This document shows, piece by piece, positions 29,601-31,153 of a DNA stretch of 32,000 bases. Source of the DNA: Candidatus Saccharimonadota bacterium (GTDB lineage Bacteria > Patescibacteriota > Saccharimonadia > Saccharimonadales > Saccharimonadaceae); NCBI GenBank assembly GCA_016700015.1, contig CP064995.1, forward strand, positions 979,182-1,011,181. The letters run 5' to 3'. The position numbers and the translations under genes were made by a program. Each line of letters begins with the position of its first letter. Within the stretch, counting starts at the first letter, position 1. The notes below the pieces were generated by a model, which was not told where the DNA came from, made no database searches, and saw only the letters and a program-made list of their open reading frames with translations.

Positions 29601-30129
29601 TCTTACTGCTCGGGGCCTTACCGGTAGTGCCAACCACTGTCGCCCAGAACCAGCCACTGCCGATGCCGACCATGACGGTCAGCCCGACAACACCCAGCCC
29701 CTCTACCTCGCACGTAACGGTGACAGCACCAAAGGTGAAGACCCCACCCGTACCTACCTCTTCCGTAACTTCTACGCCGCCGAAGCCCAGCTCGGCATCA
29801 CCGACTACACGCCCACCGGCACTCCAGCTAACACGCCAGATAAAGCCACTCAGCCCCTCCAACCCTGGAACCTCCTGGCTACTAGCAAAGACGTAGGGTA
29901 TAGCCCAGTCTTCAATAAGCTCACCATAACTACAGATTCAACTGGCAAACCCTGGCCCATCATTCTCGCAAGAAAGCACAACACAACAAATCCTAGCAGC
30001 GCCATTTGCATCGCCTACCAACCAGATAGCCAAACAAATACCACCAACATAAAGCTTGCTACCCAGCCCACCAGGCAGTTACAATTAATGAAATGGAAAG
30101 ATGTTCCGGAAGGAGTAGGGTGTGAGTAA
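26626..30129 (+). CDS. Large secreted SGNH/GDSL-family hydrolase with Ig-like and thrombospondin-type-3-like Ca-binding repeats
   Basis: The start is placed at ATG 26626, with AAGGGAG 8 nt upstream. Signal peptide: MRIGKRVVVMAAVAAVLVVGLTNGKQLAATSA. SGNH blocks: I LALGDSFSSGEG, II ACSGAT, III LTMGGNDV, V DFHPNHFGH. DxDxDGxxD repeats: DIDEDGIDDSVD, DTDHDGIDDACD, DADPDGDGW, DADHDGQPD. Confidence 0.85.
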   Translation: MRIGKRVVVMAAVAAVLVVGLTNGKQLAATSALDWLAPPPTVTYFAEGEQTPDMTENQMPNPCIKQTITYYNPYAYGVNKVESKEACVHIAQNFRLVRNFIQACTWWGCTNYDTEYISLPGDTMFHRVSNLTGGGWDGCWQTSPDTNGIYFICGRLHMVKDLLAYITPSTNGDEHYYEFDAIAGYTYVENETTRTSYTAGATISPNGKWGVLALSSVGLIRINLLDGTLRLFTKDIPSFGYGSDPSYDFSITDDGRYIAAGGNNVGAKVYAVDDTCGEVSVKIKETWYDRYTPINACPNQDLVPIILESSGNPAAGIRSLSYVKFSGDGGQITAFYYPWQGAPGAIHAGWLTITAAGYVKPRAQIDYLALGDSFSSGEGDTERRPNSNLKYYREHTDDDGITVIGSEPIHDRPTEKCHLSTRSYPYILANGMDLGDPTTTPNTPWQSVACSGATAWDVKEHAFGNYLGQGDRLKGYDYEALKAQALNEFIPGRQKQIEFVKKYQPKVITLTMGGNDVDFAGKLFECTTKPWQCNYASISWRDKLRKEMEYQFKNLSDLYAEISNATDSKAKIYVLGYPIFINGNPYAKCSSIFWLDNSEREMINNSIIYLNNIIEQAAKKAGVKYINVENAFGNHRLCDAGSQHVTAVTNVFGASGNEQQEDFHPNHFGHVDLANAVWSAVGGQSLLDYQTCSDPSVKVCPNASVAAADAIVPPYFTEGVPADNTEIHYYTLTNGTLVKMTEAYDVHTQTMVFKSESKVDITLYSDPTSLGQATAASDGSVSTQITIPSSVPVGYHTLVLRGQSPDGTPVELYQTVEVRGSNPNDIDEDGIDDSVDKCTYITPLNIDTDHDGIDDACDPEVNVSEAPYRIRLGDPTRSYANQPEKSNYLYLERNVNATALTGISGDADPDGDGWAVVGASSGKAYSTTTPTSIPDTAPYANFTMTNYDPAATIAPTSPIVPSIYLRAGDFGCVEYKPTSLSKVLPGEVRTLTLTARGLTGSANHCRPEPATADADHDGQPDNTQPLYLARNGDSTKGEDPTRTYLFRNFYAAEAQLGITDYTPTGTPANTPDKATQPLQPWNLLATSKDVGYSPVFNKLTITTDSTGKPWPIILARKHNTTNPSSAICIAYQPDSQTNTTNIKLATQPTRQLQLMKWKDVPEGVGCE

Positions 30130-30130
30130 A
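29854..30130 (+). repeat. Direct repeat copy 1 (hydrolase tail, stop codon and the next gene's start)
   Basis: These 277 bp are identical by eye, with no mismatch found, to 30430-30706. The offset is 576 bp, a multiple of 3. Confidence 0.9.
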
Positions 30131-30427
30131 AGTAGTTTGAACCAATCGTATAAAATTAGAGTTATGCAATACGCCCCCCCTTCGTTCGTATTGGTTGCTC
30201 TTGCGCTGTTTGGCGGCCTCGCTGAGCCAGTCTTTAAAAGCTTCGGTATGAAAAATACCGGGAGTATGATCGTACTTTATGCCATCTTGTCTGTAGCTAC
30301 CTGTACGTGGTTGTCTTTGAAGATAAAAGGTGTATCCAGGGTAATTGCGTTAATTTGCATACTTCCACTAGTCTTATTTGGTCTATGGGGATACGTCATT
30401 ATACGGTTCAGTAGTTATCAATTCTAG
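30122..30427 (+). CDS. Small three-TM membrane protein (tm1), translationally coupled to the hydrolase
   Basis: The GTG start overlaps the hydrolase stop (GTGAGTAAA). 101 aa: MSKSSLNQSYKIRVMQYAPPSFVLVALALFGG...MIVLYAILSVATCTWL...VIALICILPLVLFGLWGYVII. Confidence 0.6.
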   Translation: MSKSSLNQSYKIRVMQYAPPSFVLVALALFGGLAEPVFKSFGMKNTGSMIVLYAILSVATCTWLSLKIKGVSRVIALICILPLVLFGLWGYVIIRFSSYQF

Positions 30428-30429
30428 CA

Positions 30430-30705
30430 CCCCTCCAACCCTGGAACCTCCTGGCTACTAGCAAAGACGTAGGGTATAGCCCAGTCTTCAATAAGCTCAC
30501 CATAACTACAGATTCAACTGGCAAACCCTGGCCCATCATTCTCGCAAGAAAGCACAACACAACAAATCCTAGCAGCGCCATTTGCATCGCCTACCAACCA
30601 GATAGCCAAACAAATACCACCAACATAAAGCTTGCTACCCAGCCCACCAGGCAGTTACAATTAATGAAATGGAAAGATGTTCCGGAAGGAGTAGGGTGTG
30701 AGTAA
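30430..30705 (+). pseudogene. Orphan, start-less copy of the hydrolase C-terminal tail (91 codons plus stop)
   Basis: This is repeat copy 2, in the same frame as the hydrolase, beginning 3 nt after the tm1 stop. It encodes PLQPWNLLATSKDVGYSPVFNKL...DVPEGVGCE* but has no start codon or Shine-Dalgarno of its own. Confidence 0.7.
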
Positions 30706-31153
30706 AGAGAAATCTAAGAGCAGCCATAATCTAGGTAAAATTATGATTGGCTTGACGAGTGTAGTGCTTATTATAAGTTTGTACTTGAATGGCCTGACAG
30801 GCAGGTCTGAGTTTGGTGTAAAGGCCCTAAGGCCATGGTTCGGGTTGATGATATTCATATGCGTAGCCATCACGATTATTTCCGTAGTTATCTATAAGAA
30901 AAAAAGCCAGTGTTATGGAGACGTTTTTATCAGCTGTCGCCATACTGTTGTCAGTAGCCCTAAACTTCATCGGCTATGTAATGGGAAGTTATTGATCTTC
31001 TACGCCGCCGAAGCCCAGCTCGGCATCACCGACTACACGCCAACGGGCACTCCGGCCAATGCACCAGATAAAGCCACCCAACCTCTCCAACCCTGGAACC
31101 TCCTGGCTACTAGTAAAGATGTAGGGTATAGCTCACTGTTCAAAAGACCATAA
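30698..31153 (+). CDS. Chimeric ORF: a two-TM membrane protein (tm2) fused in-frame to a diverged copy of the hydrolase pre-tail segment
   Basis: It uses the same embedded GTGAGTAAA start. Sequence: MSKEKSKSSHNLGKIMIGLTSVVLIISLYL...WFGLMIFICVAITIISVVIY..., then FYAAEAQLGITDYTPTGTPANAPDKATQPLQPWNLLATSKDVGYS, then SLFKRP*. Confidence 0.5.
   Translation: MSKEKSKSSHNLGKIMIGLTSVVLIISLYLNGLTGRSEFGVKALRPWFGLMIFICVAITIISVVIYKKKSQCYGDVFISCRHTVVSSPKLHRLCNGKLLIFYAAEAQLGITDYTPTGTPANAPDKATQPLQPWNLLATSKDVGYSSLFKRP
30997..31132 (+). repeat. Diverged third copy of the pre-tail segment
   Basis: 136 bp aligned without gaps to 29769-29904, with 12 mismatches by my count. Confidence 0.85.

Follow-up and report, generated by a model that had tools for sequence, protein, structure and literature searches.

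A repeat array at the 3' end of an operon that is headed by a gene for a secreted SGNH/GDSL hydrolase was analysed in a stretch of 32,000 nucleotides (nt) from a Candidatus Saccharimonadota genome (contig CP064995.1; the whole stretch is called the window below). The hydrolase gene is followed by small membrane-protein genes, every further one of which is preceded by its own copy of the hydrolase 3' end, and related arrays were found in other Saccharibacteria. On balance, we consider it probable that the operon ends in the hydrolase and a series of small partners, each with a copy of the hydrolase tail, that this array is remodelled by recombination and that the partners are perhaps protective. 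The array had been described in an earlier note on the same DNA, whose claims are taken up where results bear on them. Contigs and loci used for comparison are given by L numbers. The elements in question are as follows (positions refer to the window).

26590..30129, + strand: secreted multidomain SGNH/GDSL hydrolase, 1179 amino acids (aa), identified by Pfam; the NCBI start at 26626 gives 1167 aa.
29769..29853, + strand: segment A, consisting of the conserved block FYAAEAQLGITDYTPTGT and a linker; the part of the tail that is common to the third copy (repeat comparison).
29854..30130, + strand: B copy 1, comprising the final 91 hydrolase codons, the stop and the overlapping start of tm1 (repeat search).
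30108..30130, repeated at 30684-30706, + strand: leader or translation-initiation region GGAAGGAGTAGGGTGTGAGTAAA, with Shine-Dalgarno (SD) sequence, GTG start and hydrolase stop.
30122..30427, + strand: tm1 (T1), 101 aa, three transmembrane (TM) helices, T family; the GTG start overlaps the hydrolase stop by 8 nt.
30430..30706, + strand: B copy 2, a second hydrolase tail that is not translated and gives tm2 its SD and GTG (repeat search, table of open reading frames (ORFs)).
30698..30995, + strand: tm2 (T2), T family, frameshifted; 98 aa and three TM helices when restored.
30997..31154, + strand: A'-B' remnant, derived from a diverged hydrolase allele (90% identity to 29769-29915; right junction common to UBA669/L012).
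31294..32000, + strand: 5' part of the aspartyl-tRNA synthetase gene aspS, a conserved neighbour that borders the array on the right; the full-length gene in L001 and L005 matched Pfam tRNA-synt_2 and GAD.

The repeat search of the window recovered the 277-nt direct repeat (29854-30130 and 30430-30706) exactly as the earlier note had read it, with 100% identity and a spacing of 576 nt, together with a third piece of 147 nt (30997-31143; 90% identity to 29769-29915). Only two sites in the window contain the 23-nt end of the repeat (chance expectation 0). The right edge coincides with the hydrolase TAA plus 1 nt, so that GTG-AGT-AAA is included, and the left edge of copy 2 lies 2-3 nt past the tm1 stop. 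Copy 2 is silent: its tail frame has no start codon, and a stop in that frame is found at 30412-30414. The order in the window is hydrolase with A-B, T1, silent B, T2 (frameshifted), the old A'-B' remnant and aspS. A fusion of tm1 and B copy 2 by frameshifting was considered and rejected, the tail frame being open for just 13 nt before the tm1 stop and lacking a slippery site. No inverted repeats were detected within 27000-32000 by the repeat search.

The SD sequence and GTG of the first partner lie within the last codons of the hydrolase gene (GGAGG..GTGAGTAA). When the 45 nt upstream of the small-gene starts were aligned, genes located behind a hydrolase or a tail copy shared the leader ..tggaaagat.tcc.g.aggagt.gggt GTG agtaa.. 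(shorter form ..ggaaagat.tcc.g.aggagt.gggtGTGagtaa..), which encodes the last residues of the hydrolase (KWKDVPEGVGCE, followed by the stop) as well as a strong SD, the GTG and the Ser-Lys codons. The start of the small gene overlaps the hydrolase stop in 11 of the 12 hydrolase or tail loci. Translational linkage to the hydrolase is nearly universal among the small genes. Since the smallest tail copies that were kept measure only ~21-40 nt, the constant functional part of the repeat is the translation-initiation region. The leader gave no sign of an RNA element (fold z-score 0.10, no Rfam match, no tRNA). Promoter-like matches in B (TTGCTA-18-TACAAT at 30056-30085 and 30632-30661) belong to a class that is not enriched, with 12 such matches versus 7.9 in shuffled sequences.

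The small genes fall into two groups, T and S. Thirteen small genes behind related hydrolases encode proteins of ~95-110 aa that start with MSK or MNK and have three TM segments, with a basic loop ahead of the third; the earlier expectation that relatives of the tm genes would be linked to such hydrolase tails elsewhere was thus borne out. The earlier note had rightly seen a different small membrane ORF after each B copy, and had taken the two proteins to be unrelated and tm2 to have two TM helices. With leave-one-out profiles, tm1 scored 26.5 bits (shuffle maximum 12.3, reversed 3.3) and restored tm2 12.1 bits (shuffle maximum 8.4, reversed 2.0), shuffling being a lenient control for TM proteins. 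With moderate confidence, both are therefore placed as probable distant members of one diverged three-TM family. The N-terminus of tm2 (MSKEKSKSS) moreover resembles that of a 98-aa gene in L010 (MSKEKNKASS; blastp E=0.018). Named relatives of T or S were not found.

The annotated tm2 ORF (30698-31153, 151 aa, QQS21930.1) runs into the third tail copy. If the A7 run at 30899-30905 is shortened by one A, tm2 becomes a protein of 98 aa with a third TM helix (..KKKASVMETFLSAVAILLSVALNFIGYVMGSY and the stop), ending at a TGA at 30993-30995, and A' starts 1-2 nt after this restored stop. The passage of tm2 into a third copy, as noticed earlier, is correct as a description of the sequence (90% identity, 151-aa ORF); because tm2 is frameshifted at A7, the in-frame tm2-A' "fusion" is a product of read-through, and tm2 has three TM helices rather than two. 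The frameshifted 151-aa product was found in three independent assemblies, so the extra A is real. In the NCBI record, tm1 has no protein entry, the locus tags running from 05475 (S) over the hydrolase to 05485 (tm2); the annotation has probably overlooked this small overlapping gene.

S-family proteins consist of an N-terminal TM anchor and a domain of ~60 aa with two invariant Cys residues. They alternate with T proteins in the arrays and are encoded behind the hydrolases in L009, L010, L014 and L032, and in the window just upstream of the hydrolase, where two stretches belong to this family.

26135..26447, + strand: S-family gene, frameshifted at the G6 run 26365-26370; N-terminal TM anchor and Cys-containing extracytoplasmic domain.
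26460..26540, + strand: truncated second copy of the S gene 5' end, just before the hydrolase start (compare 26136-26205).

The annotated S ORF (26135-26395, 86 aa, QQS21928.1) ends early, and its conserved C-terminal motif AEYFCSESEAQG is read on in another frame as far as 26447. This 86-aa product was present in at least eight independent short-read contigs. In L014, an S homologue (11381-11670) is frameshifted at the same position, at a run of ~ten G. Exact look-ups of the restored tm2 and S proteins retrieved no in-frame variant on record. A C-terminal 'YFCT..AE.AGY' region in the S proteins (L014 10689-11027 and 11992-12357; window 26135-26447) gave sub-threshold matches to the NCBIfam 'sunset' domain NF051437 (19-21 bits, cut-off 27), which is also named in L4 and L17 ribosomal-protein variants.

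Searches with the tail retrieved at least 13 related loci, all from Saccharibacteria where named. Tail copies were identified by comparing the last 600 nt of each hydrolase gene with its own locus. Related arrays were present in L007, L008, L009/L012, L010/L015, L013/L014, L030, L031 and L032, where copies of the hydrolase 3' end (21-302 nt) precede small membrane-protein genes of the T and S families and supply their SD and GTG. The copies in five of these loci or locus pairs are as follows.

L013/L014 (tail 76% identical to the window; L014 contig of 262 kb): copies of 40 nt (95%) and 302 nt (100%) and an A'-like copy of 116 nt (92%).
L009/L012 (UBA669, tail 87% identical): copy of 50 nt (96%, ending at the stop) and an internal piece of 63 nt.
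L010/L015 (Ca. Saccharimonas aalborgensis): copies of 39 nt (100%) and 35 nt (94%, L010 only).
L007 (tail 79% identical): copy of 39 nt.
L008 (tail 51% identical): copies of 105 nt (96%), 21 nt and 23 nt.

The array size varies, with T1 and T2 in the window, at least five T genes in L008, three T and two S genes in L010 and four S genes in L014. In L008, six leader copies are spaced 304-436 nt apart, each before a T gene of ~95-104 aa. In L031, the end of a T gene is followed by a nearly complete orphan A-B tail, and in L030 an orphan A-B tail stands between rpsG and a T gene, the body of the hydrolase being missing. L020 holds parAB, T, S, an A' remnant and lepB without any hydrolase, whereas the distant relative L032 has a hydrolase, an S gene with overlapping GTG start, a gene for 200 aa, another S and a T. 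In three assemblies of the Ca. Saccharimonas aalborgensis-like lineage, the hydrolase is frameshifted at the same place before the tail (L007 264-1132, L010 7362-10699, L015 4424-7761). The T/S arrays of L010 and L015 are intact despite the frameshifted hydrolase, and the short L007 contig contains one intact T gene before it ends. The cross-strain comparison thereby bore out the suggestion that the window holds one instance of a recurrent, strain-variable array of 3'-end copies and partners.

Several lines of evidence from these alignments indicate array turnover by homologous recombination. The long copies of one genome match each other at 100% (277 nt in the window, 302 nt in L014) and stand beside very different genes, whereas the tails of different genomes are 76-87% identical (76% for window versus L014), which calls for a recent duplication or conversion in each lineage. 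A and A' of the window differ at 15 positions, 12 of them synonymous and 3 nonsynonymous (ratio of nonsynonymous to synonymous differences per site, pN/pS, 0.08; P=1e-5 under neutrality); in L014, 7 synonymous and 2 nonsynonymous differences were counted (P=9e-4). Since the differences are mostly synonymous, the divergence of the A' pieces took place in a functional coding sequence; such pieces derive from other alleles and not from decay in place. A foreign origin of A' was considered and rejected: A' is nearest to the A of its own genome (89.8%, versus 83% for UBA669), and no strain could be singled out as donor. The right end of the remnant and the region upstream of aspS (83% identity) are common to the window and L012, and the middle of the window remnant was lost by deletion at a TTCAA direct repeat (31139-31143). 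The interval from hydrolase to remnant is filled by wholly different genes: the window has T1, B and T2 there, and L012 has a TM gene for 143 aa, a B piece and S. Finally, the starts of orphan pieces, whether in the loci or in short database proteins, lie no more than ~20 codons from YLFRNFYAAEAQLGI(S/T)DY, the most conserved block and the best recombination substrate between diverged alleles. Most of these starts are also found 0-20 nt from the stop codon before them. Identical copies within genomes, the low pN/pS of A versus A' and the orphan starts near the conserved block all lend support to the earlier proposal that recombination shaped the locus.

The hydrolase comprises, in this order, a signal/anchor, an N-terminal domain, the SGNH domain (aa 379-688), a beta-sandwich, Asp-rich repeats of the thrombospondin-type-3-like kind, two repeated modules and the conserved C-terminal tail. 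Profiles PF13472 and PF00657 matched with 44.4 bits (cut-off 32.9) and 37.3 bits (cut-off 23.6), respectively, and the GDS, GGND and His blocks are seen in the family consensus. The N-terminal signal/anchor, read from the sequence, is of a plain type. By sequence, the SGNH domain comes closest to two solved chains, the phospholipase A1 4hyq (1e-8) and the lipase 5mal. When a tail profile was searched against 1.84 billion representative proteins, 123 clusters matched; nearly all of these proteins measure 1040-1150 aa and carry the tail at the extreme C-terminus, and ~20 are short truncated or fused forms. An AlphaFold2 model of the tail based on a 60-sequence alignment is beta-rich (predicted local distance difference test score, pLDDT, 88.5; predicted template modelling score, pTM, 0.85); the model based on a 6-sequence alignment was unusable (pLDDT 44). 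The tail is a single conserved domain and no variable toxin tip, so the earlier idea of a swappable toxin tip did not hold. Scans with Pfam, NCBIfam and PADLOC (an anti-phage defence library) assigned no family above threshold to the tail, tm1, tm2 or the S proteins, in agreement with the earlier impression that no toxin domain is recognisable. Likewise, a tblastn search of 50,697 phage records gave no match that would suggest a phage origin of the tail.

Further features of the hydrolase gene were recorded. An internal 40-nt repeat (29269-29308 and 29680-29719, 78% identity) was found, and the pre-tail region consists of two related modules (an Asp-rich motif, then 'QP....LYL.RN') that agree with the two stretches matched by the tail profile in most family members. 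The N-terminal ~378 aa (26590-27723) show no DNA similarity to the N-terminus of the closest relative (L009 5101-5877), and the 80% similarity to L009 begins exactly at the SGNH domain, so the hydrolase appears to be modular at its 5' end as well. The neighbouring genes encode a major facilitator superfamily protein and DsbA-like, CBS, CorA and PAP2 proteins, in addition to aspS; no recombinase is encoded among the neighbours of the array. The gene for the DsbA-like thioredoxin (24247-24993, - strand) lies closely upstream, and the secreted proteins of the locus (tail, S family) carry conserved Cys pairs. Proteins of the window are identical to QQS21925, QQS21927, QQS21928, QQS21929 and QQS21930 (IPM09 locus tags).

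The structure of the array was verified with independent short-read contigs, which were retrieved by exact-protein look-up and matched the window at 99.8-100%. They stem from several samples and, judging by name style, more than one assembler (SPAdes NODE, MEGAHIT k127 and a scaffolding pipeline). The A to B junction is contained in L034 and L035, both of which run from the upstream genes through A into B, the B to tm1 junction in L001-L004, the tm1 to B junction in L001, L002, L003 and L006, where the whole second B is spanned, and the B to tm2 junction in L001, L002, L005 and L006; L001, L005 and L006 extend from tm2 through A' to aspS. A single-nucleotide polymorphism (SNP; 30088 A>G) is confined to copy 1 in L001 and L002, which contain both copies, and the same G is found in copy 1 of L004, so the B copies are separate sequences. 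The contigs break inside B, as predicted for a repeat longer than k, with the k127 contig L035 ending exactly 127 nt into B; the linear order consequently rests on the window itself, which is the sole single-molecule path that uses each junction once. Because all four junctions recur independently and the SNP separates the copies in three samples, the repeat structure is real and no assembler artefact. Unmatched 5' ends were observed in L001 (1-44, upstream of the last 95 nt of B copy 1) and L006 (1-27, inside tm1); they are either chimeric contig ends or alternative junctions of other strains.

Taken together, the following course of events is proposed. A phospholipase- or lipase-like secreted hydrolase would head an operon in which small membrane-protein partners follow, each further partner carrying its own copy of the hydrolase 3' end and hence the same ribosome-binding site and start. 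The array was probably built and remodelled by RecA-type homologous recombination at the tail copies. Within a genome, duplication, deletion and conversion would give rise to copies that are 100% identical, and between strains, crossovers would tend to occur near the YLFRNFYAAEAQLGI(S/T)DY block and displace pieces of older alleles downstream, which might later erode to the minimal leader. More tentatively, the small proteins may be protective, immunity-like partners against a membrane- or envelope-active hydrolase rather than dedicated helpers. A protective role is favoured over that of a chaperone or anchor because T and S persist where the hydrolase is broken (L007, L010, L015) or absent (L020, L030), and a membrane-located protector is plausible because of the affinity of the enzyme to phospholipases and lipases. 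A further-reaching version, in which the hydrolase 3' end would serve as a combined expression and capture site for the integrase-free cassette exchange of membrane partners, possibly immunity factors, of a host-attacking lipase, is regarded as unlikely. Under this version, general recombination could insert, duplicate or delete any small gene with such a copy, or exchange it among naturally competent Saccharibacteria, which would give each strain its own set of partners.

Several points weigh against the proposed remodelling of a protective array. T genes occur alone, without a tail, in L022-L024. Homology within the T family is weak (pairwise identity 11-24%), and the control used for its profiles was a lenient one. 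Two of the three small genes in the window are frameshifted and may be decaying. The tail model had no match in the PDB or BFVD when compared by Foldseek, the check that the earlier note had advised (best E=0.14-0.19, TM-score at most 0.23). The distance of a tail copy from the preceding stop is 1-20 nt in L014, L020 and L031 and ~35-40 nt in L008 and L009, and its placement at 0-3 nt after the stop in the window is unaccounted for by simple homologous recombination. Moreover, a recombination event was never observed directly, and no deletion or alternative-order variant was found.

Among the competing explanations, neutral debris deserves attention, even if it appears doubtful: an ordinary hydrolase-partner operon of a small genome would have undergone tandem duplication and decay, with tails as passive by-products kept only for a ribosome-binding site of ~20-40 nt and no adaptive exchange of cassettes. 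The frameshifts in tm2 and S, the erosion of the remnant by deletion, the pseudogenised hydrolase of the L010/L015/L007 lineage and the lack of both a nearby recombinase and detected variants would all be expected of decay. It does not readily explain why copies of 277 and 302 nt remained 100% identical next to genes that are highly diverged, in two genomes with a tail identity of only 76%, why the A' pieces bear a signature of purifying selection, why strains that share both flanks differ completely in gene content or why several unrelated sites of the chromosome show the pattern. It is judged improbable that the locus is a true polymorphic toxin-immunity system, with the hydrolase as an interbacterial toxin whose C-terminal tip is swapped by recombination and tm1 and tm2 as the cognate immunity proteins. 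Orphan-like modules of a 5'-truncated tail and a small gene do exist, their geometry fits the model of displacement and homologous recombination devised for CDI (contact-dependent inhibition) and Rhs orphans (PMC4927057), the hydrolase resembles lipases and phospholipase A1, and partner genes are retained without it. Yet the tip is one conserved domain that is always C-terminal, the enzymatic domain is central instead of lying in the tip, and the presence of identical tips before different partners is at odds with cognate pairing; Pfam and NCBIfam revealed no toxin or pre-toxin domain, Foldseek and PADLOC returned nothing for the tail, and type V, VI and VII secretion genes are absent among the neighbours.

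A programmed switch, in which recombination between the B copies and slippage at A7 and G6 toggle tm1, tm2 and S by phase variation, seems quite improbable. The perfect 277-nt direct repeats that flank tm1 and the location of the frameshifts exactly in homopolymers (A7 in tm2, G6 in S and ~ten G at the same S position in L014) fit such a mechanism, but the same frameshifted products were seen in three (tm2) and at least eight (S) independent contigs, with no in-frame variant on record. Evidence for the 576-bp deletion that had been envisaged as a switch was not obtained either: in three samples, the k-mer coverage of tm1 contigs was similar to that of flank contigs (1.86 vs 1.88, 1.17 vs 0.91 and 1.02 vs 0.78), at a depth of just 1-2x. 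Least credible of all is that a metagenome assembler joined the alleles of different strains. The short-read contigs, all of which break inside B, would on their own also allow a hydrolase-B-tm2 order with a separate B-tm1 circle. Against this, all four junctions, including the non-homologous one from tm1 to B, recur across samples and naming styles, and the copies differ by a SNP within one contig (L001, L002), which largely removes the caveat raised in the earlier note. In addition, the window proteins match one single NCBI contig of 1.01 Mb, which equals an entire Saccharibacteria genome in size, as is typical of metagenome-assembled genomes obtained from activated sludge with long reads (PMC8012365); the link to that project is a putative one, drawn from the locus tags.

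Saccharibacteria and other Patescibacteria live on host bacteria and cannot make lipids. To our knowledge, almost no surface effectors of Patescibacteria have been characterised. A conserved family of secreted lipase-like proteins of ~1100 aa with a unique tail and strain-variable membrane partners is a candidate for a system of epibiont-host attack with self-protection, or of conflict between epibionts. The layout would extend the logic of "orphan modules" in that a conserved 3' coding end provides both homology and a ribosome-binding site, and general recombination in competent cells would suffice. Even if the array were mere duplication debris, it would still document the turnover of gene arrays in 1-Mb genomes. 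Natural competence and the integration of DNA by homologous recombination have been described in Saccharibacteria, and an attack on host envelopes has been proposed for patescibacterial phospholipases (PMC11665869).

The locus is similar to orphan toxin/immunity modules and to the immunity arrays of type VII secretion systems (T7SS) but fails their defining features, and a toxin/immunity role is not established. For orphan cdiA-CT/cdiI and rhs-CT/rhsI modules, a model of displacement and homologous recombination has been put forward (PMC4927057). As in these systems, a gene for a large secreted protein has 5'-truncated copies of its own 3' end downstream of it, in the same orientation and each ahead of a small gene (window, L008, L009, L010, L014, L030, L031); the copies keep a homology to the main gene that could support recombination, older pieces resemble displaced alleles, and the arrays vary between strains. 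Unlike in CDI and Rhs orphans, the repeated 3' end is one conserved domain and not a variable toxin, only the small gene varies, and the partners are polytopic or anchored membrane proteins; a VENN or PxxxxDPxGL-type demarcation, a known toxin fold, CdiB, type VI secretion or T7SS genes, a transposase and an integrase are all missing here.

The immunity arrays of the T7SSb (esaG, tipC, tsaI) evolve by homologous recombination between paralogues at conserved blocks (PMC9484751). They share with the present arrays the rows of small paralogues that differ from one another and include membrane proteins, behind a toxin-like gene, a strain-dependent copy number and conserved blocks as recombination substrates. 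Here, in contrast, the conserved block lies outside the paralogues, being a copy of the 3' end of the upstream gene that doubles as ribosome-binding site; the T paralogues (11-24% identity) are too diverged to recombine, there is no T7SS, and the immunity role is putative. Like integron arrays, the locus has a single expressed site followed by small promoterless genes that all point the same way, with a repeated element bounding each of them. Unlike in integrons, no integrase, attI or attC was found, the repeat is coding sequence of the upstream gene and exchange would use general homologous recombination. The silent pilE/pilS cassettes differ in that, here, B copy 2 is identical to copy 1 and A' departs from A by 1-3 amino acids in 48 codons. 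Neither an integron nor a pilS-type model fits the locus. As for the enzyme itself, its catalytic domain matches SGNH lipases and phospholipase A1 (4hyq, 5mal) by sequence, whereas the Saccharibacteria protein, at ~1100 aa, is set apart from these by an additional domain at the N-terminus, a beta-sandwich, Asp-rich repeats and a unique tail at the C-terminus.

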